In this document: positions 14,666-45,328 of the stretch, piece by piece
Numbering within the stretch: the first letter of the stretch is position 1
How the letters are laid out: each line of letters opens with the position of its first letter
From: Obrimoposthia wandeli
Taxonomy: Eukaryota
Length of the DNA: 64,000 bases
Assembly (NCBI GenBank): GCA_977020255.1
Contig: CDROCS010001822.1
Coordinates: forward strand, 124,001 to 188,000
Direction of reading: 5' to 3'
Translations under genes and position numbers: made by a program
The notes under the pieces: model-generated
Told to the model about the DNA's origin: nothing
The model's input: the letters and a program-made list of their open reading frames with translations, nothing else
Database searches by the model: none

Positions 14666-14840
14666 TGTTAGGTTTAAGAATTAAGAAATTAAAATAATTT
14701 AGTCGATTAAATACTAAAATAAAAATCCTTGAAAGCAAGGTTGAAAATTAAATTAAATATTAATTTTAGATTCAAAATTGAAATTAGTGGAAGTTAGGAT
14801 AAAAATTAGGAGGACCACGAAGGTCGTGTATAGTGTAGGA

Positions 14841-14848
14841 TATATAAG
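14841..14848 (+). promoter_or_regulatory. LTR TATA box
   Basis: TATATAAG; the homologous position in the solo LTR reads ATATATATAG (43261). Confidence 0.6.
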
Positions 14849-14939
14849 GTTAGATTAATTAACCCAAAAGTGCAACAAAAAGCACATAATTAAAGGAAAA
14901 GCAAAAGGGAACAATTGAGAAAATCGAACGTCAATCAAG

Positions 14940-14989
14940 GTAAGCACTTTTTCGTGCAGTTAAATTGGAGTAACTAAATTATTTTTCAG
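14940..14989 (+). other. Predicted 50-nt mini-intron in the LTR leader
   Basis: CAAG|GTAAGC...ATTTTTCAG|C; a 54-nt equivalent occurs in the solo LTR (43818-43871). Confidence 0.6.
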
Positions 14990-15146
14990 CTGCCGCCAAA
15001 ACTCCAGTTGAAACAGCTGTCGACATTGCTGATTGACAGCCAGGAGTTGCAGAAATCGACTATAAAAGTCGTCGACCAAAAAACAAATAGACACGAAAGA
15101 AAAAATCAATATCCCAAATCTACTGAAGGGAATCGACCACATATTG

Positions 15147-15152
15147 GTAAGT
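15147..15152 (+). promoter_or_regulatory. Major 5' splice donor of the LTR leader
   Basis: TATTG|GTAAGT, a perfect consensus; the equivalent in the solo LTR is TATTG|GTAAGA (44028). Confidence 0.7.
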
Positions 15153-15200
15153 GAGATTTGGTGAAATTTGGATTAACTTATTGTAGATCACAAGTCTATT

Positions 15201-15522
15201 GCCAATATCGTTTGAAAGAAATATCGTTAAATATTGCCAATATCGTTTGAAAGAAATATCGTTAAATTTTGCCAATATCGTTTGAAAGAAATATCGCTAA
15301 ATATTGCCAATATCGTTTGAAAGAAATATCGTTAAATATTGCCAATATCGTTTGAAAGAAATATCGTTAAATTTTGCCAATATCGTTTGAAAGAAATATC
15401 GTTAAATTTTGCCAATATCGTTTGAAAGAAATATCGTTAAATGATGCCAATATCGTTTGAAAGAAATATCGTTAAATTTTGCCAATATCGTTTGAAAGAA
15501 ATATCGCTAAATATTGCCAATA
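15201..15522 (+). repeat. 35-bp tandem repeat in 5' LTR, 9 full copies plus a partial
   Basis: Unit GCCAATATCGTTTGAAAGAAATATCGTTAAAT(A/T)TT starts at 15201, 15236 ... 15481. Confidence 0.97.
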
Positions 15523-15623
15523 CATTGTTAAAAGAAGCCGATCGTCGCAATATTCCCAAACTACCTACGGATCCTGTACCGGAATTTCAAGCAGCATATA
15601 GGTAAGAACACCGACTAAAGCAT

Positions 15624-16060
15624 TCATTGCCCCTAGTTGGCAATTAGGATACATTCATTGCCCCTTGTTGGTAATTCGAAATTGTAATATATTTTAACCA
15701 TATTCATTGTCCCTAGCTGACAATTAGGATTGCTGTCTCTTTAACCAAATCATTGTCCCTAGTTGACAATTAGGATTGTCCATTTTATTCATTGTCCCCA
15801 GTTGACAATTAGGAATTGTACGAGTTTTTTCCCGTAAGATTCATTGTCTCTAGCTGACAATTCGGTTCACTCATTGTCCCTAGTTGACAATTCGGAACAA
15901 ATACTCATTGTCCCTAGTTAACAATTCGGTCCACTCATTGTCCCTAGTTGACAATTCGGAACCAACACTCATTGTCCTAGTTGACAATTCGGAGTAAGTT
16001 TTCATTGTCATCGTTGACAATTAGGTTTTTAGGAGAATCATTGTCCACAGTGGACAATTC
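15624..16060 (+). repeat. Array of 12 short palindromic units TC-ATTGTC-n6/7-GACAAT
   Basis: Units at 15626, 15657, 15706, 15752, 15791, 15843, 15873, 15907, 15937, 15971, 16004 and 16040. Confidence 0.9.
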
Positions 16061-16329
16061 GTGGTTAAATACACAACAGATAGAGTTACGGATTCAAGAA
16101 ACTTTATCCACACATAAGAAGTTGAGTCGAAGAAATTTAAGAGGGTTGCGTTATAGATTAACCAACCTAGGAAGAAGAATAACCCTAAAATCTCGATCAC
16201 CCGAACGTAAAATCGATACGTGGTTCATCCCCACTTCTTGTAGAGACTTACAGAAGTCTTAGGAATTTTACCATACTTTTTAGAGATACGTACATAAACG
16301 TATTGTTGTGTTTAGTTACGTGAATTACC

Positions 16330-16335
16330 AATAAA
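16330..16335 (+). terminator. LTR polyadenylation signal (functional copy expected at 37787-37792)
   Basis: The only AATAAA I found downstream of the TATA box in this LTR; conserved in the solo LTR (~45729). Confidence 0.6.
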
Positions 16336-16548
16336 CAATTTCCTACATTAGAACAAGTTGTTTTTGCACCCTTCAGAATAAGAGACATCGAATCAAATAC
16401 CTTCAGATAGTACAAGAGATAGGCAACCATAACACTAAGTAGGCCACGACCAACTTTAAGACCTGCTTCTAATCGAACTCACGTTGGGGCCCTCCGCATT
16501 TCAGAGGATCTGTACCAAGTTTCGTATAGAAACCCCAACATATTAAAG

Positions 16549-16566
16549 TGGTGCCCCGAGTGAGGA
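16549..16566 (+). other. Primer-binding site complementary to the 3' end of elongator tRNA-Met
   Basis: TGGTGCCCCGAGTGAGGA vs the complement of vertebrate elongator tRNA-Met 3' end (recalled) TGGTGCCCCGTGTGAGGA: one mismatch. Separated from the LTR by TATTAAAG. Confidence 0.8.
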
Positions 16567-16605
16567 TAGCTCGTCGGACACAGCGAATTCACGTGGAATA
16601 AGTTC

Positions 16606-16965
16606 AGATATTGAGAATAAGTTTCAGGTAAAAAGAATAAGTTTAGATAAGTTTCAGATAATTGAGAATAAGTTTCAGGTAAATAGAATAAGTTCAGATA
16701 AGTTTCAGATAATTGAGAATAAGTTTCAGGTAAATAGAATAAGTACAGATATTAAGAATAAGTTTCAGATATTAAGAATAAGTTTCAGATATTGAGAATA
16801 AGTTTCAGATAAATTGAGAATAAGTTTCAGATAAATTGAGAATAAGTTTCAGATAAATTGAGAATAAGTTTCAGCAGAAGAATATAGACAATTGAGAATA
16901 AGTTTCAGAAGAAGATATAAGCAAATTTAGAATAAGTTTCAGAAGAAGATATAAGTAAATTGAGA
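16606..16965 (+). repeat. Degenerate tandem repeat (~20-nt core TTGAGAATAAGTTTCAGATA) in the 5' untranslated region
   Basis: More than 12 variants of gagaataagtttcag. Confidence 0.9.
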
Positions 16966-17455
16966 TAAGAATTTGATAAGTTTTTGAGAAATCGAGTAGA
17001 TTTGTTCCTCGAAGTTAAGAATTTGATAAGTGTTGAGAAATCGGGTAGATTTGTTCCTCGAAGTTAAGAATTGATAAGTTTTGAGAAATCGGGTAGATTT
17101 GTTCCTCGAAGTTAAGAATTTGATAAGTTTTGAGAAATCGGGTAGATTTGTTCCTCGAAGTTAAGAATTTGATAAGTTTTGAGAAATCGGGTAGATTTGT
17201 TCCTCGAAGTTAAGAATTTGATAAGTGTTGAGAAATCGGGTAGATTTGTTCCTCGAAGTTAAGAATTTGATAAGTTTTGAGAAATCGGGTAGATTTGTTC
17301 CTCGAAGTTAAGAATTTGATAAGTTTTGAGAAATCGGGTAGATTTGTTCCTCAAAGTTAAGAATTTGATAAGTTTTTGAGAAATCGGGTAGATTTGTTCC
17401 TCGAAGTAAGAATTCGATAAGTTTTGAGAAGTCGAGTGGATTTGTTCCTCGAGCC
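16966..17455 (+). repeat. 49-bp tandem repeat, about 10 copies, in the 5' untranslated region
   Basis: Unit GTTAAGAATTTGATAAGTTTTGAGAAATCGGGTAGATTTGTTCCTCGAA. Confidence 0.93.
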
Positions 17456-17991
17456 AGTAAATTTGATAAAGTGAGAATCGAGTGGATTGATACTCGAAGT
17501 AATTAATTGAATAGGTTAAGTCGGGAGACTCTGTCCTCGAACTAATTAAAGAGATAAAAAATCGTAAAATAAGAATTGTGAAATAAGATAAAAATAATAA
17601 GTAAATTGATATCGTAAACGAATACATAATTGATAAGACAACGGATAATAGAAAAGGACCCGCGTATAATACTAGAAGACAAAGTCAGATTCCCAAGGAA
17701 GAGATAAATAATAATAAAGTTAACCGAATTGAACAGGTTCCCCAAACAGATAACAAAGTAACAGAAAAGACTAGAGTCGAAGAAAACGTATCAGAAAGAG
17801 ACGTAAATCAATCAGCAGTTTCAACCGATAGTTTTGATCTGACTGAGTTATTTGGTGACATAAACCCAGAAGAAATTGATAATCTTGAAGTTCAAAACCC
17901 AGAAGAAATTGAAATTGCCAATCCAGTAGTGATTGAAGAAGTTCAAGTAAATAATATTGAAGGAATAGTTGAAGACGATATAGTTGAAGAT

Positions 17992-18687
17992 ATGGCTCAC
18001 CAAGGAGCTCCACCAGATATTAATGCAGGAAATAATGTAGGTGAAATGAATGCCGAGCAGTTGGCACAAGCTTTAAATGCGACGTTGAGACCCAATTTTT
18101 CAGGATCATTGCAGATTACAAAGTTTAAAGGAGATGAGGAAAGTATTTGTGACTTCCTCGCAGAATATTCGAGTTGTGCAGATGTTCAAGGATGGAACGA
18201 TAAAGAAAAATGTGTCAGAGTACAGGCACATTTAACCGGATTAGCACTTGAAGTGTATAAACATTTGACAGAAGCAGAACGCATAGATTGGCCAACGTTG
18301 GAAAATGCTTTTATTGGAAAATTGGTATTAGGAGACTTAGCCAAAGTAAATAAGCGACTCATGAGAGAACGGAAACAGAAACATGATGAAGGCGTGAACG
18401 AATACGCGTATGTTTTGAGAACCTTGGCCGCAAGAGCGTACCCAAGAAGAATAATGAGAAATCAGGACGGTAATCCTGTAGCTCCAGAAGCACAAGCAGC
18501 GGAAAATGACCGGAACCAAAATGAAATGGCAGAGGTTTTGTTAGATATATTTAGAGGAGGATTGAAAAAGGATATTAAAGTGTTATTAGCAGTATCGGAT
18601 ACAAACGATTTTGATAACGCCGTACGAAAGGCGAGAGAGATTGAGAAAAATATAAAAATAATGCAGCATTGGCAATTTACGCAATGA
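17992..18687 (+). CDS. gag: Gag capsid portion; the frame is open from 17605 without an ATG; probably continuous with the large ORF
   Basis: ITKFKGDEESICDFLAEY...GWND...LTGLALEVY...WPTLENAF...QKHDEGVNEYAYVLRTLAARAYP...IFRGGL is a typical Ty3/gypsy capsid. Confidence 0.88.
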   Translation: MAHQGAPPDINAGNNVGEMNAEQLAQALNATLRPNFSGSLQITKFKGDEESICDFLAEYSSCADVQGWNDKEKCVRVQAHLTGLALEVYKHLTEAERIDWPTLENAFIGKLVLGDLAKVNKRLMRERKQKHDEGVNEYAYVLRTLAARAYPRRIMRNQDGNPVAPEAQAAENDRNQNEMAEVLLDIFRGGLKKDIKVLLAVSDTNDFDNAVRKAREIEKNIKIMQHWQFTQ

Positions 18688-21600
18688 CTGCAGGTGACGA
18701 CGATAAAACAAAGGTATTTGTGAATAAAACAGAACCGAGTAATTTTCAGAATCGAAATTATGGACAAAATAAGTTCGAAAAAGTAGATGAATCCAGTAAC
18801 GGAAATAGAGATAATTTCCGAAGTAGGAATCGAGATGATTCGAGAGGTAGAAATAATAGTGAGTCTTGGAACAGGAATCGAGATGATTCAAGAGGTAGAA
18901 ATAATAATGATTCGTGGAATAGAAATAGAGATGATTCCAGGAATAGATTTAATAGAGATAATTCAGGAAATCGCCAACCTTGGAGAGGAGACGATAGGAA
19001 TTATAACGCCAACAGAGGAGAGCGAAGTGACTCTCGATTTGGAAATAATACAGGAAATAGCGACGGAAGATTCAATAATCGAGGAAGCGGTTTTGAATCG
19101 AATTTCCGAAGAAATTATTTTAGAGGGCGCTATGATAATAGACAGAATAGTCGTCGAGTACAGTTCGAAGATGAACAAAATAAGATAGATATTCGAGGGA
19201 GAATAATGTGTTACACGTGTAAGCAAATGGGTCACTATTCGAGAGATTGTACGAGAAGTAAAGAGTTCGGAACTAACAGATTTGGAAATAATAATTTCGG
19301 TAATAATAATTTTGGAAATAATTATAGAGGATATAATTCACCTCCGCCATGGAATAGAGGTGGTGGATATACTCCACAGCCATGGAGACCGAATAATCAG
19401 TATACAGATAGACAACAGTCACCAGGTAGATACAATAACTATGCAGACAGACAGCAAGGAGCTGAGAGATACAATAATTACGTAGGACAGCAAGGAGCTG
19501 AGAGATATAATAATTCTGGTAGATATAATAATAATAATGTCGACAAGACAAATAGTCGTGAGAGTTCGCCGAAACCGAAAGGAAATTTCAGTTATGTAAG
19601 CGATGACAGTGATAGGAATCGCGAGACCGAACTTCGACGCGAAATAGATTTTGAAGATAGTGATAGTAAATTTGAACGAATGTTGGGAATAATTAAAGAT
19701 TCACCACATACAAAGATGGCAAATTCATCTACGTTGTCGAAACAAGAAAAAAGTCTACACTCGAGAGAAGATATGAATGATTTAATGAATAAAATACTAG
19801 AAGCGTATGAGACACCAATAGAGAAAACGTGTAACGCACAACCGATGATTGAGCATGTAGAAGCAGCGAGAAATGCTACGAGTATGGAAAATGTAAAAAA
19901 GATAATTAGTGAAGCTAAGGAGACGTTAAATCAACCGTTAGATGAAACGAGTGAAGCTCCAGAAGTTTTGGCCAAATTACAAACAATTAAAGTGCACCGA
20001 TTGGAAGAAGTGCGTGCAGAATTGGTTAAACATAGTCATGATAACTTGGATTACAAAGAAGTACCACGAGGATTATTGAAAGGTTATGGTCGTTACGTAC
20101 AGAGATCAAACCAAAAAGGAACGATGAAAATTTCACTTCGATTAATTTCCGGACAGATAATACATGAAAAACTTAACGTGTATCAAACAATGAAAACGAT
20201 TCGGAAAAAGTTAGCCGAGAAACTTGAAATTGATGGAATGAATATGTTGTTCCATTATAAAGGGAGATCACTAGATGATGAGGACGTACCAGTCGAGTGT
20301 GGATATCCGATAGGAAATGAATTAGAGGAAAAAATTGATGTCATCACTGTAGGACGTCAAGAGTTAGTAGATAATGAAGGATTAACGGAGATATTGAATT
20401 CTGCGTTAGAAATGATAAAAACGCCTATAGAAATTTTAGACAGTTCAAGCGAAAGCGGAGATAATGATGTAGCTGAAGCTTGGAACAAGACATCCACACC
20501 AGAACCGTACGTAGCTGAATTACAAGATATGAATTTAGAAAATGAGTTGACAACTCCAGTGGTCGAGGTGCCACCAGAACCAGATATAATTCAAATCAGA
20601 CAAGATGAAGTCACGGATACAGCTAACCAAGTGCGACAAAACGAAACCGTAACCCAACTAGTAGGAGAAGACGAAGTCTCCGAGATTGTAGATTTGGATT
20701 CACCAATTTGGCATGCCGCATACAGAGATAGACAAGCAGAGCAAATGATGCGACAAAATGAAGAGATTGGCCATGAAGAAGGACCAAGTCACGAGATACA
20801 GTATAATGGTGAACCGTATGATCCAGGAGAGAATCAAACTGAGTATCAGTATTTTCGAAGAGGACCTGGAAGACCTAGAAAAGGCGAAAGTATATTACGA
20901 AATGTTCTAACTGCACCACAAACTGATGAAGAGAGACATCTAAGTATTGGACAGTTAGCAGCGTCATTAGAGCAGTATAGTGCAGAGAGGAATGAAGATA
21001 TCAGAGGTGATATGAATTCGGAAACTCCAAGTAGTAAAGATATACTTACGGGAATTCTCAGGCAAGTGAAGCCGAAGTTGTTTAAAATGTACAGAGATGA
21101 AACAACCGATATAACAGACAATTTGACTAAAGCAGTTAGATCACAAATGTCTGCAGTAAAGAGAATGACTGCGAATCATGTATACCATGCATCCATAGAT
21201 AGATTCTATGACGGTGAAGTTTTAGCGAGATTATGTGGAAACCAAACTACAAATAAAAAGTTAATTACAGCGATCACATATCTATGTTTCCAATTGACGG
21301 AACGAACGAGCCAACCTCACGAAGTCAAACAAGGAATAAATGAAGCGATGTATTTGATCGAGAATGTATTACAGAGACGAATTGACGAAAATGGAGGTTG
21401 GGCAAAATTAAGTGACTACGCTAAAACCATTTTGGAAATGAATGAAGACGATGACGAACAATGTCATGAGAATCGTCAAAAGGAAAATAAACAATACCGT
21501 CCGAAAGAGAGAAACAATCAACCAAATATGTCCACAACAATGATGATGATGATGTTAGTAATGTTTATGGGAATGCAACAGGCATCAGGATTGATAGCAT

Positions 21601-24600
21601 ATGACTGTAGCATACCAAAGATGGGACAAAAGTATTCACTGCTTGACAGCGAAGACTGTCCAGAGTCACAGCCGTCAAAATTAGAAGTTAAAGGTGTTGA
21701 AAACTACTTTGTGTATCAGGATGTTGATAAAGTACAAGTAGAAGTGAAAGAATGTTCAATCCATTCAAGTTATCACGAATTCTATTGTGGCCATAGAAGT
21801 TTTATGTCAGAAATTACACCTACCACACCGTACAAGGCACATAAGGTTTTGCCGAGAGATTGCGAAGACGCATTTCGAACGGGAACAATAGAGGTAGACA
21901 AGAATTACAAACCTGATGTAAAAATTGGAGTGAGACGATACGAAACAGTCACGAGAGTCGGACAACGATGGGCTGATGGATCTTGTAACGGAGGAACAAA
22001 AAACGTACGTGGAACCAAAGTAACTGCGTTAGTAATGGACGTAACTTACAAAATCGAATTAAAAACATGGACCGCCAATTTTGATAAAAAGACACAACTA
22101 ATGATGACGTATCCAGAATGTAAAATGACAGATACATCTTGTTTTACAGGCGAATCCACAATTGTGTATCAAGTGAATCCGAAGCAATGCTCTTTAGTAT
22201 TTTTGAAAGAGATTAGTTTTAATAAAATAAAAGGATTCCTGTATAATAGAGATGGAGAAGGATTCCTGTATAATAAAGTTGGAAAAGGATTGCTCAATGA
22301 AACAAGACCAATCCCAATGACAAAAACACCTACACTGTTAATGGCAACATCAATAGAAGAAGGATTGATATTTATTAAAAAGAGAAACAAGACGCGATGC
22401 GGAATGACTGTTAGTACTACAAACTATCCAGGAATAGTTTTGTCCAAAGAAGCAATAGCATTGGCAGAAACCAAGCTAAAACCAAAAAATATGCAGCTAC
22501 ACACGTATTTTAGTAATAAAATTGATTTCTATTATCATAAAGGATTGATGCAAATGGAACAGTTATATCGAATGATGATCGAAAGAGATTGCCAGCTAAA
22601 CAAAGAGATCGTAAGAACAAAGTTAGCATTAGCTATTACGAATCCAGACATGGTAGCACCATTATTACCCTTGGATGAAGGAGTATTTGCTAAAACCATG
22701 GGAGAAGTATTGTATACTTACAAGTGTAATAAAGTAGAAGTACAGTTGAGAACAACAAACCGATGTACGAGTGAATTGGCAGTAACGTATAATTTAAAAG
22801 ATCTTTTTGTTGAACCAATCACGAGAATGATACTTCCAAAAGACACTCCAACTAAAGAAATCAGCTGCTCTAATATAATGGCACCTGAATATCAGATGAC
22901 GAATGATTTATGGATAACGTTACCTGATCGAAAGCCAACGAAAACCCCAGCGATGATAAGAATGACGAATCTTAAAGGTAAAATGAAATTCCAAGCGGTG
23001 GAAAATATGGAGAACGCAGGATTGTACAATGAAAAAGATTTAAAAGCGGCGTGGAACGAAATAATGTTTCCAGTAAAAAGAGCCAGAGTACTTACGGAGA
23101 TGGTACATCGAGCATTACCGCCAGGAGCGAGATATGCGAATTTCGATATGTTATTATCGCCAAGTCATTTCAAGGAAGCAGCACATCAGACACTTAGAAA
23201 GATGTGGGGGAAATTCCTTGTTTTAGGACAATTATTTTCGGGTATCATAGGTATTTATGTTATAATTAAATTTGTGCAGGTAATTATAGCCCAGGTGTTG
23301 TCTACGTATAGTTTATACAGGATAACCGGAATCACCTGGCAACTTATAATTGGATGTTTTCCATTTTTAGCAAAATATCTAATGCACCATCATCACGAGA
23401 ACGAGTTGCGAGCCCTCAAGAAGGAACAACACCAAACGAGAACCATGATGCGAGAACCAAGAAACTATCGAGACGACAACGACGACGATAATGATAGTCC
23501 AGGAGTATATGCAAAGATACCCGGAAAACCAAAGATTCCGTTACCAGACAAGGAAGAAGTGGCGTTAAACCTATATCCAATGAAGGAACTAAAGGAGGAG
23601 AAGGAAAAGTTCAAGAGAGGCATCTTAATGATAAGATGGCCTAAAGTGAGCTACAGTGAGATTCCACAAGCAGAGGAAAAAGACAAAAAAGATAATTCCA
23701 GAAGAATTCTGAAGTCTAGGATATCAAATGAGAATCCAAATGCTCCACCACAAGTAGCAGTAACATTAAACGGAAGAGAATATCTTGCCGAAGTTGATAC
23801 CGGATCTGCAGTATCAGTACTGAGTAAAGAAATCTTGTCATCAAAAGAATTAAGAGAAGTATGTCCTAGAAAACAGACATTTGTTAACGTGAATGGTACA
23901 GATGTAGTGTCGGAAGGAACACTGAAATGTTCGTTGAATATCGATGGAAGAGCATTGCAGTTAAATGCTAGAATATTCACAGATTGCGGTAGTCCAGTCA
24001 TGATTTGGATGGACGTAATACGAATGTTTGAAGGAATAATTATACTACCAAACAACAAGAGTTATAAGAATGACAGTTCAGTGAGAGAGATAAAAATGTT
24101 GAGAGGACCTATAGTCGAAAAGGAAAAATACACTACGTTCCGTATGGGAAATTCGTACCAAGACAAAAAACAGGAAGCGCTAGTAAAGTCGATACTTCAC
24201 TACAAAAACGTAAACCTCGGACCACAAGAGATGACGAGGAGAAAAATAACATATGTGAATCTGTCAGAAAGGGATCCCATGAGATTCGAGAGAAAGAGAC
24301 GAAATATATTAGAACTGTACTATTCAAAAGAAATGGCACGTAAAATGGCAAGATCAGGTTTAGAAATGTTAAATGCGACAAGCAGTTATGGTCATGAGAT
24401 AGTAGTACGATGCGTATGGTGTAGAGTAAAGTTTAGAGAGTGGGAAAAGAATGAAAACCCAATGAGACGTCATAAAAGAGATGCACCAAATTGTCCATTT
24501 CTTTTAAAACTGAAAACTTCAAACGTACCAGAAATCCAAACGGGAAAAGTACCCGATTTCGATTACAGTGACGGGATTCCAAAAGGAGAATCAGCTCTAA

Positions 24601-27600
24601 TAACAGGTAGAGTAATAACAAATAGCCGAATTGAAGATATATTCGAAGTTATGCGAGAAGTGAACGAATGTGACGAACAGTATCGAGAAGTAACTTTCGA
24701 AGACCCAAGACTTAAAAAATTGGCAAAAAAGGGACTTTTTGCTATAAAAAAGGATGGTAAAGACGTAATTAAATGCCACAAGTGTAAAAAAGAACGAATT
24801 ATCGACAGATATACTCTTGAGCTACCTAATAAAATTTTACATCATGAATTTTGCGAGTTTGGTATGTTAAAAAACAAAATAAAGCAAAAAGAACAGAAAA
24901 CCGAATGTATAATCGAATACCAAATCACACGAAAAGAGATTTTGGCTCAACAAGACACACCAGTAGTGTCATTCGTGAGAAGGTTATATCCAAAAGAAGC
25001 AGAAAGAATCAGAGAATTGGTAGAATTAAAAATAAAAACTACGCGAAACGGATACGGATCGATTTTTGAATTACTGCGAGATAAAGATGACAGTACAATT
25101 GAAACAAAAGAGAAAGAGTACATAAATGAACTAGAATACGTACTAGAAGATCCGGAATGCGCAGTTTGCATGGTCAACAAAATAGAAGTTGCCTTTCTAC
25201 CATGCGGACATGTAAGAACATGTCGGAGATGTGCGAATGAAATGGTATCATGTCCGATTTGTCGAAGAATAATAGATCGACAAGTGAGAAACATTAGATT
25301 TCACTATCCAAACATAGGAAGTGGACTGACAGAGTGTAATAATTCGATAAATACAATATACCATATGGGAAACATAAATGGAGCACAGCGACCAGCAGCT
25401 ATCATTAGAGTAAATAATTTAAGAGTAAAAGCCTTAATTGATACAGGTGCTGTAGCTTCGATAGTAAGTGAAGACTGTTTGACAGAGGAACAGAAACGAA
25501 CAATGGCAGAACCAGATGAATTCTTGGTATCGGTCAATGGAGACCCTGTAAAAGTGACGGGAATATTACCATGTACATTTATAATTGGACGTAATACGAT
25601 CACTATACCAGTTAGAATCATGAAAGAATGTCCTGAACCTACAATTTTAGGAATGGATGTACTATCACAACTTAAAGGGATAAGTATTGATTTACAAGAT
25701 CCAAGATTGAAGGATAGCACATCAAACAGACAAATAAACCAAATTGATGTAATTATAGAGAATCCTATAAAAATCGGTAAAAGATCACAATTTCTCATTC
25801 AAGGTCACACATTATCAGAAGATAAAGGACCAGTTGTGTTCGAACCATCACGAGATTTCATAGAGAAATACGAATTACCAGTTGTGAGTACAGTATGCCT
25901 GATCGAAAACCACAAAATACCAGTTAGACTGATGAATACAACCAACAATGACATTCTATTATACAGAGGAATGAGGTTGGGAAAGATAGCACAGATGGAG
26001 AATCCCACCGTGTGTGCTACGAAACTCGATAAAGATACGAATGATTACGAAGAAATAGTAATCCAATCAGAAAGACTGACAACTAGAGAAAAGAAACAAT
26101 TACTTGATCTAATACATAAATTTCCGAAAGTAATTGCAAAAAATCCATATGACATAGGAGAAACACCTGTCATAAAACATACAATACCACTGACAGAAGA
26201 CAAAGTAGTCAGAAGAAGACCATATCGAGTACCATTACAATTACAAGATGAAGTAAAAAGTCAGATTGAAGATATGTCTAAAACAGGAGTAATTAGACCG
26301 AGTTTTTCGCCATTCTCAGCACCTGTGGTGTTGGTAAAAAAGAAGGATGGGAAAATGAGATTCTGTATAGATTTCAGAGAACTGAACAAGATCACAAGAA
26401 AAGATGTGTATCCATTACCTAGAATCGAAGAGATGCTCGATAAATTGGGTAATTCAGATTATTTTACGACATTAGATTTGCAGAGTGGATACTGGCAAAT
26501 CGAGATAGAGGAAGAGGACAAACACAAAACAGCCTTTTCCTGCGGAGATGGACTGTACGAATGCGAAAAGATGCCATTCGGACTGACAGGAGCTCCAGCA
26601 ACATTTCAGCGTTGCATGAATTTTGTACTCGCATCGTGTGCAAACACGATGGTTTATATTGATGACATAATAATATTTTCGAAAACGTTCGAAGAACATT
26701 TAAAAAATCTTGAAGTTGTATTTAAAAGACTGGAAAACGCTAAATTAAAAGTTAAACCTACAAAATGCGAATGGGCTAAAGAGCGAGTAACATTTTTAGG
26801 ACATATAGTATCGAAAGAAGGCATTCGTCCTGATCCGGCAAAGATCGAGAAAGTAAAAGCGCATTTAGCGCCAAAGACTGTTAAGGAGATACAGAGTTTT
26901 TTAGGTCTTGCGAATTATTACAGACGATTTGTTGAACATTTTTCAGATATAGCAACACCATTGAGAAAGTTGACGAGGAAAGATGAGAAGTTCATATGGG
27001 GAGAAGAAGCCCAACAAGCATTCGAGCATTTAAAAGAAAGACTGATAAAAGAACCAATATTAGCGTTTCCAGATATAAACCGACAATTCATACTCATGAC
27101 AGATGCAAGTAACTATGCTGTAGGAGCAGTATTGGGACAAGAGGATGACGAAGGAAGAGAACACGTCATCGCGTATGCGAGTAGAGGATTAAACAGAGCC
27201 GAAAGAGGATACTCTGTTATCGAAAAGGAATGTCTAGCCATAGTGTATTCATGTAGACAGTACAGACACTACTTGCTAGGACAAAAAGTATTCCTGTATA
27301 CAGATCACAAACCACTACAGTTCTTATATAAACATAGAGATGAGATGAGTAGATTAAACAGATGGTTTCTAAAATTGGCCGAATTCGATCTAGAAATCCG
27401 TTATAGAACCGGAAAGTCGAATGGCAACGCAGATTGTTTATCGAGATTGACAAATGTAGATGAAAAAGGAAACATAATTCCAGAGGAAAAACAAGATGAA
27501 ACCAATGACCAAAAAGGAGAAGCAAATCTACTGACGATTTTGCTAAAGACGGTTAAAATAGACAAAGAGATCATCAAAGAACAGAAAGAAGATGAAGAAC

Positions 27601-30600
27601 TGAGTCTAATCAAAGAATTGTTGGTGAAAGGAGATCTAAACGATGAAATGACGAAAAAATACTCGATAAAAGAAGGAATCTTGTATATTGTCAATAATGT
27701 CGGAAAGATAGTAGTAGTAATTCCGAAGTCATTGAAAACAGCAGTGATGATCCAGTATCACGACGGAACACTAGGAGGACATCTGTCAGGGCGAAAGACA
27801 ATAGCCAGAATCAAAGAGAAGTACCATTGGGATGGTATGGAAGACGACATAAAACAATGGTGTAAACAATGTAAAGTATGTTTAACCAGAAAAGACACTG
27901 GAACTCGTACTAAAGTTCCACTGAAACCAATGCCAGTTCCCTTGGCACCAATGGAATTCATAGCGATGGATATATTGGGACCATTGAGAGAATCAAGTAA
28001 AGGAAACAAGTACGTCATAGTATTTACGGATTACATGACGAGATGGGTAGAAGCATATCCCATGCAAAACCAGAAGGCTGAAACAATAGCACAAATCTTA
28101 GTGGAAGAGATAATATTTCGATACGGAGTGCCTAGAAAGTTGTTAACGGATCAAGGTAAGAACTTCACTGGAGAAGTCATAAAAGCAGTATCGAAGATAT
28201 TCGGAATCATGAAGTTACAAACTTCACCATATCACCCACAGACAGATGGTCTGGTAGAAAGGTTTAATAAAACTTTATGTATGATGGTACAATCCTATTG
28301 CTCCGACAAGCAAGAGGATTGGGATAAATATTTACCTTCATGTTTATATGCTTACAGGAATTCAGTTCGAGAGGCGACGGGTCACACACCATTCTATCTG
28401 ATGTATCTCAGACAGAACAATATGCCGATGGATCTGGAGTGGACCGAGCCAACATCTCAGTATCTAGAAACTGAACAATACATTGTCGTCATGAAGGAAA
28501 GATTACAAGATGCTTGGACCAAAGCCGGATTGAAGTTGAAATTCAATCAAGAAGGTTACAAGGAACAATACGACAAAAAAGCAAAACCACATGAATTTAG
28601 AGTCGGAGATCAAGTGATGATATTTTATCCAGTCATCGAACCAGGTCTATTGTTTAAACTTCATAGACCATACAAAGGACCATACAAGGTGATCCAGACA
28701 ACCTCAACAAATTTGAAAGTAATCAACGAAGAGAATCGGAACAAGGAACCGATGATTGTACATGCAAATCGATGCAAATTAGTACCAAATAAAGATAATG
28801 CGTCACGATATGAGTTAAGATCACAGAAATCGAAATCGAATACCAATACCATTAAACTTACACGAATGGTAAGTGATCGGAACTACATAAACATGATGAC
28901 GAGTGGTAGCGAGAAAAAACCAGCGAGAATTGGTATGCTCAGAATGAAGTACCAAGAGGAAAAGGAAGTAATCCGACACATCGCACCACAAGAGATATTA
29001 GAAGAAGACGAAGAGATAATAGTCGTTTTCGAAAAAACACAACCCACAGATGTGGCTAAAGAAGTCATTGTGAAAGATGCACTGACAAACGAATTTCTGT
29101 GCGAACTTAGAGTGTCATACTACGACGGAAATACATTAGTCGCAGCACTATATCAAAACTCCAATGTGTTTACGACTGAGAAAGTGCTAATCGAAATCAC
29201 ATTGACACCAAACATAGTTGCATGGCAGAACTATGACAGTACTGAAGCAGGACTAGCCAGTCAGGAAGAGAAGGAACCGGCCGGTGGTCACATACTGCAT
29301 GGTACACCAAAAAGACTTAAACAAGAATACCCCGATGTAATAATGGTATTACGTAATTCACATGGGAAAAGAGATATCATGAGAGTCCATTTAATCGACG
29401 CTGATACTGAAAAGATAATTTGTCAGATGGATACTAAATACTTTGATGGAAAGACAATTGTATGTTGTATACCAGAATCTCACCGGTTAGACACAGATCA
29501 AACGGAAGTATCTGTAAGGTTGAGCGTAATAGAAGGATTCCATTCGCCAACCCATCCGGAAGTGACTAACAATAAAATCATCAAAGCAACGGCAGAGTTA
29601 CGCATTGACAGCGGATACCGGAAGTGGGAAGCTAAAAATAAAAAACCACAAAGAATCAATATGATCCGAGAACAAGTGACCAACTCAATCCAGCCAAAAT
29701 ATCATGCTGAAATAGTATCATCCGCGCCAAGTGTGATCACATCGATAAACGACGAAATTATAATTTTACTAAAAAATCGATGGCCGTCATCAACTGAGAT
29801 ACGAGTAAACTTAATTAATTATGCGAAGACACCGATATCTAAGCTGAATGTTACCTATTTCGATGGATTGTCCATCATGGGTAAATTAGAAACAATTGTC
29901 ATGTGCTATGGAGCACAGTTCCAAGTTGAGATACTTAAAGATAGTGTAATACCGTATCCGATTCACAAATACGAAGGGAAAATCAATCCAATTATTCTAA
30001 CCCCTTCATTAATTTCAGTTCAGACAGACATACCAGAATACCCTTCGAGCGAGTCTAGTGAAGACAGCGAACCAGAAAGTAACGATACAGAATCAACAGA
30101 ATCCGAAGATAACATAATAGAGCGATTCGGAAGAACCATGGAGGTTGAATTCGCTAAAGAGAGCAGAAAAAGACAAAACATAGAATTCGTGAAACAGAAT
30201 ATACAAGAAAGACGAATTAAATCTGCAGAAGAGACCGAGTCGGAAGAAGACTCAACAAAGGAACAGACATCAGAGACAAAGATGAATATCTCTCCAGCAA
30301 TACGAATGCTGAGAGGAAAGAAACTGGCGAAACTATCCAACATCGACGAACAAATAGAGAAGAGATTAGAAAGACTAAAACTTGAAGAGTCAGAATTAAT
30401 GCCACCAATGAGTGAGATCATAACAGGTAAGTTATACCTCGGAAATGTGGAGGATGCAACAGATGAAAAGAAACTGTTGGAACAAGGGATAACATACGTG
30501 ATCAACGTTACAATGAATCACAAATCGCAATATCAGACGATCAGAGCTATGACATTAAGAGTAAAAGACTCAATGGACGCTAATCTTCTCGAATGGTTTG

Positions 30601-33600
30601 TAGAAACAAACGAAATACTTCACAGAGAACTCCGGAACCAAGGAAAAGTGTTGGTACATTGTCAGAAAGGAATTTCTCGATCAGCAACTCTAGTATTAGC
30701 ATACCTAATAAAGACTAGACGAATGCAGGTACTAGAAGCGCTAAAATACCTACAGGAGAGAAGAAGTATTGCAAACCCAAATCTTAATTTTTTGGGACAG
30801 TTGGCAAATTACCAACTTCTGTTGCAAGAACAAAGACGGATGGACAACATTCCTGAGGATCCAAAGGAAAAGAATTTCCTCCAAGCATTATCATTGACCG
30901 GGTTATTCTTAGCCGGAGTCGACAAAATTACACAGATAATGCCAAAAGTATTTTTATGTCATCCAGGAGATATAGATACTGCTGGATTAAAGTTCCACAG
31001 TATCAACCGAGTAATCAACATTGTTGAAGTAGGAAACGAGATAATTAGTCTGTGTCAAAATACTGAAGATGACACCACTCGATACATACATGCTTCCAAT
31101 CGAGAAATAAACGATGCACAACAACATCTGACGAAATTGACTCAAACCATCCAAGCTGAAGTCACAGAAGGAAACGGCGTTCTGATATATCAGAAAAAAG
31201 GTACAATGTTAGCGCCTACCATAGGTGTATCCTTGTTGGTAGAGTACCATGGTCACACGCCAGAAGAAGCGATGGTCTACATCAAACAGAATAGACCAAA
31301 TACGGAATTCAAACCGTTACTCGTTCGAGAAATAGAGAAATACACCGAAAAGAGGAAGCAACAACGAGAAACAAATGAAGCTACAACAACAGTGCCCAGC
31401 TTTCAATACCAAAGATTGTTAGCAATAGGCTTGTTAAGTTGTCTAATGCCGATAACGGGAGCACAAGAAATAGGCTCCAACCACGGAAATAGTTCCTGGT
31501 TCAACGAAATCCACAACTACACCATACAGTACCATACGCCGGCACTGATGATGCTATTAGTGTTGTTAGGACTAATTGATGTGTGGATCATCCGAAAATG
31601 TCTTCGATCCATGAGAACCGACAGTAAAAGATTTCAGTTTGTAAAGATGAAAAGACCAAATGGACCAACGAACAAAGTGCTTGTGTATCTAGACGAAAGG
31701 ATCGAGGACAACATAGTAAATGAAGCGATATTTTACCCACAAAACAGAATACTGAATCAATTCCGAATAGATTACGAAGCTGACCGACAGCGCACACTTG
31801 ACCGAATATCAACAACATTCGCCGGATGCAAGCGAAGAAAACGAGTTGTAAAGGAAATACAAAAAGATGCTGATACAAAAGGACCAACGTATATATTCGA
31901 CGGCGATGTCATCAAAACACGTGAGTATGGAAGTAAGAGAGTGATAATTGAAACGATGGAAGGACATAAAACATGCTTCGGAAAGTTGACGATACAAGGT
32001 AACCCGGTACAGTTAATTATCGGAAAAAATGGAATCGAGGAGATGTCAAAACAACGACAGATAACAAAACGATCTAATCAGAAACAGATATCTCTCAAAC
32101 GATTGATAATTAAAACCCTTTGCAAAAGGTCAGTCAAGGCCCTGTGCACCGTTGCACAAGGATTGATTTATGGAGTAGTAATTGGATTGGTACTGCAAGC
32201 CATGCCAACCAGTAAAGCCGAATTGATGACACTATCCGAATATAATTTACATTTGAGAAATCTAGACAACACCCTAGAAATAATCAAGACATCCCACAGT
32301 AAAGCCGTGATGATCATGTGTGTAAAAGGATGTCCAGGACGAATGTGTATAGTCCCAGCGACCGAAATGATAACACTTAATGGACATTATGGAATTAGTG
32401 TTGTCACATGTGAAGACTACATATTTGGACAAACTAAAATAGTACTTCTCAGTGACATGTCCAACCAAAGTGCACACAAATTTAAAATATTAACCATCAA
32501 GAGTAAAGGAATACCAGCAGTACGTTACGGTATTCTAGAATTGGTTAATCCAATACTTGCACTGATCATTGGACTCATAATATTAATATTACTCATCTTG
32601 TTTTGTTGTACAAAGATAGAGTTGAGATCAAAAAAGAAGCGTCATGATCTCGCAAGACGAACAGGTCAAATGAACTTACAAAAATTCAACACAATTATAC
32701 CAAGACCACCATTTCTAGATGAACCAGCACCGGAGTACCAGCCAACGATATATGAACATATCGAGGAAAGACCGTACTATATGAGTAATTTGACTTGTTT
32801 CATTGAAGTTCCTGAGTTTAGGAATCGAACGATCATAGGAATCATGCTGATCATACAAATCACCACTACCAAGGCTAGTTATGAGATCATGATCAGTAAA
32901 TGGAGACAAGACGTAATACGGGCAGTATACATAGAAATCGCCCTTCTAAAAACAAATCACGTAGTAGACATTCATCTACAGACGTCAGCAACTGACAATA
33001 TCGATCAGAAATTGTATGTCATCCGACAGGTCAGAATAAAAATCGACCAAAGTACACCCGATTACAATTTAATATTATTATATCATGAAAGAGTGTTATA
33101 CCTACGGATAACAATATCAAAGAGGAAGCGGATTATCCAAAGTATCCGAACAAAGTCATTAATATTGCCTAGAGATGAGCGCATCTGGAAAATTGTCGAC
33201 AGGATTATGATCACAGGTAGACGACGTAAAGCCGTATGGAATTCCGTTAGGATATTTTTCAGATTGCTAGAAACCGACAGAGTAACAGTAATGTGTCCCA
33301 ACTCAGATGGCGGAATCAGATTCGAAATCCAAAGCCAAATGTTAGTACCACATTTTAACACAGAATGTCTGTGTAATCGAATTTCCAGTAATACTACAGA
33401 GACCTCGACCATAATCATGATAATAACAGGTGAAATATTCTACATAACTCTAAGATACCAGAACCGTCGATTTCGTAGATCCGGTATAAGTATCAAACCC
33501 AGGAAAATCATTCCCAAAAGACCAATCCTAGTCAAAAAGAAGGCAAAGGTAATCGAAAGTAAACGCCATTCCAAAAAACCGACAGTGATCAGAACAAAGA

Positions 33601-34153: not shown

Positions 34154-34453
34154 ATGTCCGAAGAATGCCCAATATGTTTGGAAGATCTAACCGAACGAAG
34201 AACAAGACCCGAAACCTGCAACCATTTACACCACGAGGAATGTTTATCGACATAGATCAGAACTTATGGACAGTTCGGACATCCAACATACCCTTGTTGC
34301 CCTGTATGCAGAAGACAATTCGCAAGATTCATCATGTTAGAACCCAACCAAGAGGATGTATATGTACAGGTGGTATTCTGTTGGAAGAATTTCGGAGAGT
34401 GTTGGTGTTATTACTGTTTGTCAGAACGACAAAATCCGACCACTTTTGTGTAA
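34154..34453 (+). pseudogene. RING-H2 accessory gene 1 with an in-frame TAG at 34253 (W codon in paralog)
   Basis: MSEECPICLEDL...TCNHLHHEECLST*IRTY...CPVCRRQF...FCWKNFGECWCYYC is colinear with gene 2. Confidence 0.85.
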
Positions 34454-34513
34454 ACATCACACAACCACCAGTCCTCAATCGAGCCCAAATTCAACATCAA
34501 CCCTCTCACAGTA

Positions 34514-34819
34514 ATGTCTGGAGAATGTTCCATCTGCTACGAGAGCATCATGGACTTCTACACCAAGCCCAACAACTGCGACCACCTCTTCCACGTCGAA
34601 TGCCTCGAGACGTGGATCCCCATCGCCAACAGCAACAATCCCCTCGACTTCCCAACCTGCCCGATGTGTAGAGCGACCTTCTCAGTACACTACGTGTACA
34701 ACCAGGACAGCCTCCAAGCAGTGGTACCCATAGTACACTGCTGGAAAACCATCTGCGATTGCTGGTGCTCGTTCTGCGTGGAGGAGCGAAGCACAGGCCA
34801 GCCCAATTCCCAACAATAA
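34514..34819 (+). CDS. RING-H2 accessory gene 2 (101 aa, putative E3 ligase)
   Basis: CSIC...CDHLFHVECLETW...CPMC, followed by the extra Cys cluster HCWKTICDCWCSFC. Confidence 0.88.
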   Translation: MSGECSICYESIMDFYTKPNNCDHLFHVECLETWIPIANSNNPLDFPTCPMCRATFSVHYVYNQDSLQAVVPIVHCWKTICDCWCSFCVEERSTGQPNSQQ

Positions 34820-35158
34820 TCGAAGGTAACTTTCTGACTTGAACGTGACATCATGAACTACCCTGTGTATCGCATACCGCGATAAATTAGCTACCATAAT
34901 TGTAATCATAATTATATAATCTTGTGAACTGTAAATTGACCATTACCATTTTTATGTATGATGTTTAACTGAAATTGTAATTATTATACTGAAATTCTAA
35001 AAAGACAATTTTTATGCTTAGTGTGAATGTGTAAACATGCCTAAAATCGGAACAAAACTCGGTAGGATTAAATAACTAAGGATTCGTTTTGAAATAAAAT
35101 TTAAATTAACGATGAGAACGGTGAACCCCAAATTGAAAGGAGTTATTTTCTTGTGCAG

Positions 35159-35656
35159 ATGAAGTGTACCGTCTGCCTCGAGAAAATTTGGACGGCATCG
35201 GCATCCCCTGTCGGCTGCCGTCACAAATTCCACGAATCATGCCTATATACTTGGGCCCGACTTCGACCCGAAGGACACGTAAATTGTCCATTGTGCCGTA
35301 CTCCCTTCGCGGAATGGACACTGCAGTGTCGAGGGCGCCACAAGGGCACCCATTCGCTCACCAGCTGTATTGGTGGCGAGCACTGCCATTGCCCCAATTG
35401 TATCGCGCGCCGTCGCGATGCAAAACTCGCTCTCCGCGAGAAATATCGGTCAACTCGCGACCCCCGCTCATGGCAGCGTGGCCGTCAAATATGGCTCGAG
35501 AATCGCGGAGTACACGGGCGGTACACGACCATTTTTCACCCGAGCCAACATCTCACCATGCGCCAGCAGATGATACTGTACAATGGCGGCCCACCATCGT
35601 ATCCAGAACTACCACTGGAGCAGGTCTTGCTGTTCCTGAAGGACAGGAACGGTTGA
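35159..35656 (+). CDS. RING-H2 accessory gene 3 (165 aa, putative E3 ligase)
   Basis: CTVC...CRHKFHESCLYTW...CPLC, plus HCHCPNC; ATG directly follows TTTTCTTGTGCAG. Confidence 0.88.
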   Translation: MKCTVCLEKIWTASASPVGCRHKFHESCLYTWARLRPEGHVNCPLCRTPFAEWTLQCRGRHKGTHSLTSCIGGEHCHCPNCIARRRDAKLALREKYRSTRDPRSWQRGRQIWLENRGVHGRYTTIFHPSQHLTMRQQMILYNGGPPSYPELPLEQVLLFLKDRNG

Positions 35657-36478
35657 CATATCCCTGACAATCTTGTTGACAGATCCCTGACAATCACCCT
35701 TAATCTTTTCTTGTGTGTAAATTTTTAGTTGTGATAAGTAATAATGTATGGTTTGAGACTTGCTCCAAATTATACATTATGATTCCCACTAAAAACCGGG
35801 GTTTTGAAAAATTTTGTTTTGGGCATGTTTGATGAGTTGAATGATTGATTTTGTAGGGATGAACCTAAAATCAACAGCCAGAGGCTTGTATAAGTAAAAT
35901 CGATACGTTCCGGGGACGTAACTTTTTTGGAACCCCCGAGGTATGTTAGGTTTAAGAATTAAGAAATTAAAATAATTTAGTCGATTAAATACTAAAATAA
36001 AAATCCTTGAAAGCAAGGTTGAAAATTAAATTAAATATTAATTTTAGATTCAAAATTGAAATTAGTGGAAGTTAGGATAAAAATTAGGAGGACCACGAAG
36101 GTCGTGTATAGTGTAGGATATATAAGGTTAGATTAATTAACCCAAAAGTGCAACAAAAAGCACATAATTAAAGGAAAAGCAAAAGGAAACAATTGAGAAA
36201 ATCGAACGTCAATCAAGGTAAGCACTTTTTCGTGCAGTTAAATTGGAGTAACTAAATTATTTTTCAGCTGCCGCCAAAACTCCAGTTGAAACAGCTGTCG
36301 ACATTGCTGATTGACAGCCAGGAGTTGCAGAAATCGACTATAAAAGTCGTCGACCAAAAAACAAATAGACACGAAAGAAAAAATCAATATCCCAAATCTA
36401 CTGAAGGGAATCGACCACATATTGGTAAGTGAGATTTGGTGAAATTTGGATTAACTTATTGTAGATCACAAGTCTATT

Positions 36479-36975
36479 GCCAATATCGTTTGAAAGAAAT
36501 ATCGTTAAATATTGCCAATATCGTTTGAAAGAAATATCGTTAAATATTGCCAATATCGTTTGAAAGAAATATCGTTAAATATTGCCAATATCGTTTGAAA
36601 GAAATATCGTTAAATTTTGCCAATATCGTTTGAAAGAAATATCGCTAAATATTGCCAATATCGTTTGAAAGAAATATCGTTAAATTTTGCCAATATCGTT
36701 TGAAAGAAATATCGTTAAATATTGCCAATATCGTTTGAAAGAAATATCGTTAAATATTGCCAATATCGTTTGAAAGAAATATCGTTAAATTTTGCCAATA
36801 TCGTTTGAAAGAAATATCGCTAAATATTGCCAATATCGTTTGAAAGAAATATCGTTAAATTTTGCCAATATCGTTTGAAAGAAATATCGTTAAATATTGC
36901 CAATATCGTTTGAAAGAAATATCGTTAAATTTTGCCAATATCGTTTGAAAGAAATATCGCTAAATATTGCCAATA
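36479..36975 (+). repeat. 35-bp tandem repeat in 3' LTR, 14 full copies plus a partial
   Basis: Unit starts at 36479, 36514 ... 36934; partial at 36969. Confidence 0.97.
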
Positions 36976-37076
36976 CATTGTTAAAAGAAGCCGATCGTCG
37001 CAATATTCCCAAACTACCTACGGATCCTGTACCGGAATTTCAAGCAGCATATAGGTAAGAACACCGACTAAAGCAT

Positions 37077-37517
37077 TCATTGCCCCTAGTTGGCAATTAG
37101 GATACATTCATTGCCCCTTGTTGGTAATTCGAAATTGTAATATATTTTAACCATATTCATTGTCCCTAGCTGACAATTAGGATTGCTGTCTCTTTAACCA
37201 AATCATTGTCCCTAGTTGACAATTAGGATTGTCCATTTTATTCATTGTCCCCAGTTGACAATTAGGAATTGTACGAGTTTTTTCCCGTAAGATTCATTGT
37301 CCCTAGCTGACAATTCGGTTCACTCATTGTCCCTAGTTGACAATTCGGAACAAATACTCATTGTCCCTAGTTGACAATTCGGAACAAATACTCATTGTCC
37401 CTAGTTGACAATTCGGAACCAACACTCATTGTCCTAGTTGACAATTCGGAGTAAGTTTTCATTGTCATCGTTGACAATTAGGTTTTTAGGAGAATCATTG
37501 TCCACAGTGGACAATTC
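37077..37517 (+). repeat. Palindromic-unit array in 3' LTR
   Basis: Copy of 15624-16060. Confidence 0.9.
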
Positions 37518-38029
37518 GTGGTTAAATACACAACAGATAGAGTTACGGATTCAAGAAACTTTATCCACACATAAGAAGTTGAGTCGAAGAAATTTAAGAG
37601 GGTTGCGTTATAGATTAACCAACCTAGGAAGAAGAATAACCCTAAAATCTCGATCACCCGAACGTAAAATCGATACGTGGTTCATCCCCACTTCTTGTAG
37701 AGACTTACAGAAGTCTTAGGAATTTTACCATACTTTTTAGAGATACGTACATAAACGTATTGTTGTGTTTAGTTACGTGAATTACCAATAAACAATTTCC
37801 TACATTAGAACAAGTTGTTTTTGCACCCTTCAGAATAAGAGACATCGAATCAAATACCTTCAGATAGTACAAGAGATAGGCAACCATAACACTAAGTAGG
37901 CCACGACCAACTTTAAGACCTGCTTCTAATCGAACTCACGTTGGGGCCCTCCGCATTTCAGAGGATCTGTACCAAGTTTCGTATAGAAACCCCAACAATC
38001 TTATCTTCATCATAATTCAGCAACTAATC

Positions 38030-38737
38030 TTAGAATCACTTAAATATCATAAATGACATGGACATCTAGTTAATTTGTCTTTCAAACCACTTAATATCAC
38101 AAACCCATATACTTTGCATTTATTCCTTCTCTATCCTTATTCTAAATCAGCTAATATGATAAAAATCATACATACTTATTAATATCCTCTAAAAGTCTCT
38201 TTATAATCCTTCATTGTAATCATTCATCTTATCTTCATCATAATTCAGCAACTAATCTTCATTATCGCTATCCTTCATCTCATCAATGTATTCCTTCACA
38301 AACTAGATGTTTATGTCATTTATGATATTTAGATGATTCTAAAAGACTAATAATAAGTCTTTCTTAGAAGAAAATTATGAGATGTTCAGGAAAATTGTGA
38401 TGTTTTACGAGGAATATTACTAGTATATTATGTATTGATTCTTATTGAAATTGATTCATATATGTTCAGAAGGAGAAATTAACGATATGTTTATAGAATA
38501 GAATTCCCCGAGATGTGATATTTACTGATATTAAGATGGTTTAGAGGATATTTTAACGATTATTAAGAGACTTTTAGAGGATATTAATAAGTATGTATGA
38601 TTTTTATCATATTAGCTGATTTAGAATAAGGATAGAGAAGGAATAAATGCAAAGTATATGGGGTTTGTGATATTAAGTGGTTTGAAAGACAAATTAACTA
38701 GATGTCCATGTCATTTATGATATTTAAGTGATTCTAA
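38030..38737. repeat. Near-perfect ~179-bp inverted repeat (38030-38208 and 38558-38737)
   Basis: tagaatcacttaaatatcataaatgacatggacatctag... is the reverse complement of ...ctagatgtccatgtcatttatgatatttaagtgattcta; one mismatch seen. Confidence 0.92.
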
Positions 38738-45117: not shown

Positions 45118-45328
45118 AAATCTAAATAATTTGTGTATTAACATCAAGTTTTTGTATTGATTTGAAGAATCTAAATAATTTGCGTATTGTTATCAAGTTT
45201 TTGGATTGAATTGAAAAGTCTAAATAATTTGCGTATTGATATCAAGTTTTTGTATTGAATTGAAAAGTCTAAATAATTTGCGTATTGATATTAAAGTTTT
45301 TGTATTGAATTGAAAAGTCTAAATAAAG
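45118..45328 (+). repeat. ~49-bp tandem repeat, 4 copies, inside the solo LTR
   Basis: Unit AAGTCTAAATAATTTGCGTATTGATATCAAGTTTTTGTATTGAATTGAA. Confidence 0.9.

Follow-up and report, generated by a model that had tools for sequence, protein, structure and literature searches.

Within a 64,000-nucleotide stretch of Obrimoposthia wandeli DNA (hereafter the window), twelve short palindromes are lined up in the long terminal repeat (LTR) of a transposable element, raising the question of whether they serve as RNA hairpins or as binding sites in double-stranded DNA. The first-pass annotation had read them as an array of RNA stem-loops, with inverted Sox-like sites as the alternative. Judged from sequence comparison, the twelve palindromes are very likely RNA hairpins on the element's own transcript.

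The element that carries the array spans 14666–37997 (23.3 kb) and is flanked as a whole by a 4-bp target duplication, ATCT. It contains the following features:

14666–16540, plus strand: 5′ LTR (TG...CA), from LTR comparison
35944–37997, plus strand: 3′ LTR, 98.7–98.8% identical to the 5′ LTR outside repeat-number differences
15624–16062, plus strand: predicted hairpin array of 12 units in the 5′ LTR (units at 15626–16058), from pattern search, alignment and covariation
37077–37519, plus strand: second array of 12 units, in the 3′ LTR (units at 37079–37515), from pattern search
15197–15522, plus strand: 35-bp tandem array, a second variable leader module upstream of the hairpins, from tandem-repeat analysis
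16549–16565, plus strand: primer-binding site, complementary to the 3′ end of tRNA-Met(CAT)
17992–18687, plus strand: Gag-like open reading frame (ORF) from the first conserved AUG, presumed to be Gag from its position
18645–33899, plus strand: polyprotein of 5,084 aa, from Pfam
34154–35656, plus strand: three RING-type accessory ORFs (starts 34154, 34514 and 35159), with a Pfam RING match for the third only

The polyprotein comprises a CCHC knuckle, a Monjiviricetes-type fusion glycoprotein (PF24664 at residues 1227–1612, E 9e-94, in frame before the protease), a BIR domain (PF00653), a RING domain, protease, RT, RNase H, integrase and a dual-specificity phosphatase. A Pfam search with the Gag-like ORF gave no match; this ORF and the polyprotein overlap at 18645–18687 in different frames. 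The first RING ORF (34154–34255) encodes 33 aa in the window copy and 99 aa in 11 of 17 other copies. This layout matches the published description of the planarian giant Gypsy elements Burro and GYPSM1. Their polyprotein of ~5,000 aa has a mononegavirus-like fusion glycoprotein that precedes, in frame, the protease-RT-RNase H-integrase block; they also have a BIR domain, accessory ORFs and thousands of copies, and tandem repeats are marked in a figure legend (PMC6431247). The Gypsy order of protease-RT-RNase H-integrase within one long ORF, the glycoprotein before the protease, the BIR domain and the accessory ORFs are common to both. In contrast to Burro, the element here is shorter than 30 kb, its LTRs are shorter (mostly ~2 kb), one CCHC knuckle is detected by Pfam where Burro has two or three, and a phosphatase and 3′ RING ORFs are present; the account of Burro consulted mentions neither a hairpin array nor a long R region (PMC6431247). 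A protein search found no named Burro element among the 120 matches listed, the nearest being metagenome proteins at 50–57%.

Several noncoding features accompany this layout. Within the same insertion the 35-bp array differs in copy number between the LTRs, with 9.3 at 15197–15522 (5′ LTR) and 14.3 at 36475–36975 (3′ LTR), and its slot holds a different repeat in nearly every LTR subtype. An 11-nt U5 stretch (16472–16482) is complementary to the T arm of tRNA-Met(CAT), resembling a primer activation signal, and tRNA-Met(CAT) genes form tandem arrays on contigs C2252 and C2837. A polypurine tract of the canonical type is absent before the 3′ LTR (35925–35943), and many copies have the same C-rich end there. 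A 14-bp direct repeat lies just 5′ of the 3′ LTR (35895–35908) and again at 16208–16221, 37665 and 45607, where it forms the start of the conserved 3′ block in every LTR of the window. A 3′ untranslated hairpin (35845–35876) and a small hairpin of the conserved LTR block (16220–16234 and 37677–37691) have complementary loops, and the two might form a kissing contact (35845–35876 with 16220–16234) that circularises the genomic RNA. The motif of the former precedes 23 of the 25 LTRs screened as candidate 3′ LTRs, the other two apparently not being 3′ LTRs. To the right of the element are a 186-bp inverted repeat of 98% identity (38027–38211 and 38555–38740) and a host single-exon ORF with an ANF-receptor ligand-binding domain (47460–48959).

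All twelve units reported by the first-pass annotation were located in the 5′ LTR, and the arms it gave for unit 1 (ATTGCC/GGCAAT), unit 2 (ATTGCC/GGTAAT, starting at 15657) and unit 12 (ATTGTCC/GGACAAT) were confirmed. Its general formula, ATTGTC-n7-GACAAT, describes a 6-bp stem with a 7-nt loop and holds except in units 10 and 11, which have 6-nt loops, and in unit 8, which has a C·A mismatch present in one of 35 aligned LTRs. The strict pattern has 21 matches in the 64-kb window against 0.13 expected and a maximum of 2 in 100 shuffles; three further units differ from it by one base, in the 5′ LTR units 2 and 8 and in the 3′ LTR unit 2. The sequence between units had been taken to vary freely, which is correct for spacer length; the loops and the immediate flanks, TC and T(A/C)GG, are constrained.

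Units were compared in a sample of 80 regions with 85 LTR ends, drawn from the first 100 ends listed and including some cases in which both LTRs belong to one insertion. Detection relied on the flanks, the outer stem and the end of the loop, allowing up to 3 mismatches; the three inner stem pairs were unconstrained. At least three units were found in 43 of the 85 LTR ends (450 units in total), and the array was absent from the other 42. The hairpin is ~25 nt long and occurs in 3–19 copies per array. Its loop is seven bases long in 419 of the 450 units; in these, position 1 is C (411) or T (8), and position 5 is G in every case, this G being part of the detection anchor with its three allowed mismatches. 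Positions 1 and 5 could thus form a C–G cross-loop pair, for which a both-sided change is absent. Conserved loop ends and flanks beside free spacers are common to many LTR subtypes.

The family is abundant in the 1.35-Gb genome, with 10,874 exact matches to a 19-mer from the LTR end, ~31,700 neighbouring unit pairs per strand (control, 0) and 32,128 copies of the commonest unit form, which has a GTC/GAC stem. The unit pattern had no match in viral contigs, and its single, isolated match in a metagenome contig, in apparently coding DNA, was taken as chance. An Rfam search with the array returned two sub-threshold matches only.

The way in which the stems vary helps to tell RNA from DNA. The 450 units comprise 2,625 Watson-Crick pairs, 61 G-U pairs, 5 A·C pairs (two of them from two apparently misdetected windows) and 9 others, and the stems form a series (GTC/GAC, GTC/GGC, GCC/GGC, GCC/GGT, ACC/GGT) in which every step passes through a plus-strand G-U pair. 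In the whole genome, pair 4 is G-U in 4,512 copies, A-U in 4,417 and A·C in 63, and pair 5 is U-G in 1,936 and C·A in 31, with 129 extra C·A matches at pair 5 that lie nearly all in the longer, amplified terminal hairpin of one subfamily. At pair 4 the wobble is therefore ~70 times as frequent as its mirror mismatch; at pair 5 the excess is ~12- to 60-fold. Moreover, left-C and right-A arms are each common and are almost never found together. The background in the conserved LTR end is strand-symmetric, with 0.449 (A>G) versus 0.456 (T>C) and 0.40 (C>T) versus 0.44 (G>A) variable sites per site. Double-stranded DNA is blind to the difference between G-T and A·C, yet the two differ 12- to 70-fold, which disfavours Sox sites; the ACAAT core is also missing on both arms in 129 of the 450 units (29%).

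In a set of 74 distinct seven-base-loop units, out of 91 distinct unit strings, the paired fraction, the number of both-sided cells and the covariation score were each reached by none of 500 shuffles, slid registers scored far lower than the true stem register, and RNAalifold gave the same 6-bp stem. The two measures taken at the level of pairs, which are robust to relatedness, are not significant, with 99 and 95 of the 500 shuffles reaching them, and the shuffle test therefore does not exclude relatedness. The first-pass interpretation is partly supported: the genome-wide wobble bias at pairs 4 and 5 and both-sided changes above all 500 shuffles back its RNA stem-loop reading far more than a single window could, with protein binding, export or packaging as proposed roles. 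On a tree of 35 LTRs built with the unit columns left out, ~26 pair-state changes fell across eight unit positions, indicating that the genome counts reflect amplification of few events. Position-specific loops, for example that of unit 3, are retained while both arms change, which argues for pairing inside each unit. An alternative fold of the loop with the 3′ flank was 74% paired with no covariation and was rejected, as was loop-loop kissing between units, since CGAAG, CACAG and CCUCG are not self-complementary. A hairpin on minus-strand DNA or antisense RNA predicts an excess of plus-strand A·C, and the opposite was observed.

Folding energy is modest and counts against the structure. The z-score of the array is −2.8 for the sense strand and −4.9 for the antisense strand, which folds better (−133 versus −113 kcal/mol), and local z-scores of 26 hairpin-type arrays lie between −0.4 and −3.8 except for one of +0.4. 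Unconstrained folding favours pairs that join different units; even under a 40-nt span limit, only 8 of the 12 units form at ≥0.69. The hairpins would accordingly require co-transcriptional folding or a bound protein.

The position of the array in the predicted transcript bears on its role. Three further features of the 5′ LTR are relevant:

14813–14849 (LTR position ~145–180), plus strand: conserved promoter block with a TATA-like box, from conservation
15599–15607 (GT at 15602), plus strand: predicted 5′ splice donor, 22 nt before the array, from its motif
16330–16335 (~210 nt from the LTR end), plus strand: poly(A) signal at the presumed end of R, from conservation

Of the 81 LTRs with a 5′ anchor, nearly all have the promoter block and an A(A/T)TAAA signal ~210 nt from the LTR end. 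AUGs are common until ~40 nt past the start of the promoter block and nearly absent thereafter. Hairpin arrays contain 1 AUG against 293 expected, other arrays 4 against 744, and the stretch 14870–17991, from the putative start to the Gag AUG, 2 against 51; of the 37 distinct array types, none carries an AUG within the first 100 nt of the array, where 31 would be expected to. In the controls, the 3′ region has 46 AUGs against 51 expected and host DNA 253 against 290, and the first 200 nt of the LTR also has AUGs. Because this almost AUG-free leader begins just past the TATA-like box, the array is likely to lie inside an unusually long R. Transcription would start near 14870 (LTR position ~205), giving an R of ~1.5 kb that holds the array and a leader of 3.1 kb. 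Further tandem arrays 3′ of the primer-binding site (20–22 bp and 49 bp; 16596–17452) are likewise AUG-free.

In 40 of 41 hairpin-type LTRs a GT(A/G)AG donor motif precedes the array by no more than 60 nt, mostly by 22–23 nt, and 20 of 40 other LTRs have one in that interval. Predicted acceptors, each a pyrimidine-rich AG, lie 0–2 nt 5′ of the RING-ORF AUGs in 17 of 17, 17 of 17 and 10 of 10 copies found. A genome search for precise loss of the LTR-internal intron gave 5 matches and no junctions, and the four unlabelled sequencing runs showed no GT..AG among 15 joints listed of 284, being uninformative on expression. Predicted mini-introns of 40–50 nt were also noted in the LTR leader (14940–14990 and 15147–15187), with tandem duplicates in some subtypes.

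Direct observation covers the units and their wobble-biased covariation, the AUG-poor leader and the constant location of the array just past a donor-like motif. Placed beside a splice donor and in a leader devoid of AUGs, the array has a narrower range of likely roles, and, given that the units are RNA hairpins, a function in splicing or in the fate of unspliced RNA is somewhat favoured. The leading explanation as a whole, in which a host protein binds the array at many sites, restrains the neighbouring donor and favours unspliced genomic RNA, we hold at about even odds. Each unit would have a 6-bp stem whose upper three pairs can change if pairing is kept, a 2-nt 3′ bulge, a 2-bp lower stem and a (C/U)NNNG(U/C)(U/A/G) loop across which C and G may pair. 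A host RNA-binding protein would bind this multi-copy pad and hold back the adjacent donor. Splicing from the donor at 15602 to the 3′ acceptors would yield mRNAs for the RING proteins with the 5′ array removed, while unspliced RNA would retain it for export, translation and packaging. The start site, the splicing and the structure in this model are predictions from sequence. Against it, a second copy of the array lies in the 3′ LTR, 5′ of the poly(A) signal, and is hence on spliced RNAs too; the array alone therefore cannot mark unspliced RNA, and even the best model leaves the 3′ copy unexplained.

Other explanations differ in how well they withstand these data. In the first, which is improbable, the hairpins are RNA and their partner is Gag or nucleocapsid, making the array a packaging signal in many copies that doubles as the switch by which the RNA leaves translation for assembly. 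Retroviral packaging signals sit just behind the splice donor, as this array does, and the invariant loop G and the CCHC knuckle of the polyprotein fit such a partner. Multimerisation of Gag has also been proposed to repress translation of Ty1 RNA (PMC4974528). However, elements without hairpins carry a near-identical Gag and knuckle, and the presence of the array in the 3′ R and in solo LTRs makes it unselective for genomic RNA.

Quite unlikely is a role of the hairpins in tuning U1 at the adjacent donor so that the poly(A) site of the 5′ LTR is suppressed and that of the 3′ LTR allowed. In the foamy virus R, too, a donor precedes the poly(A) signal in both LTRs (PMC3694450), but here the donor lies ~730 nt from the signal and outside the hairpins, and the local context is equal in both LTRs over a long R. 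Unlike foamy virus, the element also has an R of putatively ~1.5 kb, further predicted small introns and repeat arrays.

We give as little weight to a functionless repeat whose palindromy arose by template switching in reverse transcription, with wobbles from biased mutation or A-to-I editing and chance amplification. The few independent events, the lack of the array in half of the LTRs and the rare single variants at pair 4, which are within ~twofold of each other among the matches listed, are in line with such an origin. Against it stand the symmetric background spectrum, the inability of A-to-I editing to make C>T wobbles, the loop ends and flanks conserved beside free spacers, and the constant location just past the donor. 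The least probable explanation is a downstream enhancer in which a Sox-like or another dimeric factor binds the units as double-stranded DNA. It draws on the commonest arms (CATTGT and ACAAT), the near-fixed loop length, the weak folding energy and the frequent occurrence of tandem factor sites in LTRs. Against it stand the wobble asymmetry, the avoided combination of left-C and right-A arms and the lost cores, and although the inverted ACAAT and ATTGT cores recall SOX18/SOXE dimer sites, the SOX18 dimer site described is ACAAT-n5-ATTGT (PMC6265484) whereas the units read ATTGT-n9-ACAAT, opposite in orientation and different in spacing, at variable distances from one another.

LTRs without hairpins carry other tandem arrays in this slot, of 30 distinct types, which stop roughly as far from the LTR end as the hairpin array does. 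Among 23 elements, hairpin-type elements and those with other arrays are mostly 90–100% identical per 250-aa window, broken or chimeric copies excepted. None of 1,409 informative internal coding sites tracked array type (best p 0.003, uncorrected; 9 hairpin-type and 14 other elements, thus at low power), suggesting, at that power, that the slot is exchangeable and giving no indication of a dedicated partner encoded by the element. A pairing with an element protein variant in the manner of Rev and RRE was discarded on the same 9-versus-14 comparison. Since array type tracks no coding difference of the element, the partner of the array is probably a host protein. Elements L135, L149–L150 and L134 have the same LTR ends with internal proteins of which long stretches are only 40–60% identical; they may represent a second family, or chimeras, using these LTR ends.

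The loop pattern of the hairpins recurs in 6 of the 30 other array types on the sense strand and in 1 on the antisense strand, with ~20% per type expected by chance. The divergent types L036, L039, L041 and L104 have this pattern with different closing stems, which we treat as a lead only given the near-chance rate. A general reading of all other arrays as hairpin arrays was rejected, as most are without a folding signal and the loop-pattern frequency is close to chance.

A solo LTR of another subtype in the window holds a different array in this slot:

43086–45943, plus strand: solo LTR (target duplication CTTG) whose slot is occupied by a 64-bp array, 14 nt past a donor

It shares only its ends with the array-bearing LTR (93% over 342 bp and 74% over 177 bp). 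The first-pass annotation had taken it to keep only a half site and hence to favour a half-site reading. This argument is weak, because the LTR belongs to a different subtype and its 64-bp unit has a candidate partner arm, GATAATT, 19 nt after AATTGTC; the 45-nt piece folds at −2.4 kcal/mol.

Known RNA elements offer partial parallels. The MPMV CTE, HERV-K RcRE and MER11 CTE are structured cis-acting RNAs, some in LTRs, proposed to act for unspliced RNA, and recombination can exchange one such element for another (PMC11379458). Those elements are large, multi-stem and near the 3′ end, whereas the hairpins here are small, repeated and behind a donor, and no Rec- or Rev-like partner tracks the array. 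A conserved RNA structure on the genomic strand, a feature of transport and packaging elements, is seen here by covariation alone. The iron-responsive element and other pseudo-triloop hairpins have C and G as loop bases 1 and 5 around three bases, with a variable stem (PMC8466369), and the array hairpin resembles them as a small hairpin of an untranslated region with C...G at these positions and a variable stem. It departs from the iron-responsive element in its 7-nt instead of 6-nt loop, in middle bases that are free and not AGU, in a 6-bp stem with a predicted 3′-side bulge in place of a five-bp upper helix over a bulged C, and in giving no Rfam match; on these points it does not agree with the descriptions of that element (PMC8466369; PMC3884659). 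A literature search found no description of the array; the LTR repeats are possibly covered by Grohme et al. 2018, which lay outside the scope of the search.

Mapping of cis-acting RNA signals in animal Gypsy elements is poor, and the literature searched yielded no account of one from a Burro-like element. A 25-nt hairpin in tens of thousands of natural variants is a ready mutational scan and a small bait for its protein. The long AUG-free leader and the putative 1.5-kb R overturn the default view of a variable LTR middle as a DNA enhancer. Tentatively, and with a good deal of doubt, the array may be an exchangeable RNA cassette behind the main donor within the 1.5-kb R, one of more than 30 interchangeable cassettes that would recruit different host RNA-binding proteins; the hairpin array would then be a natural counterpart of engineered MS2-type tag arrays. 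If this were true, near-identical elements would choose cell type and escape silencing post-transcriptionally and not via enhancers. Planarian transposons are de-repressed tissue by tissue (PMC8532177), and, should the host indeed be a planarian, exchangeable RNA cassettes would be a testable means of reaching such tissue specificity.
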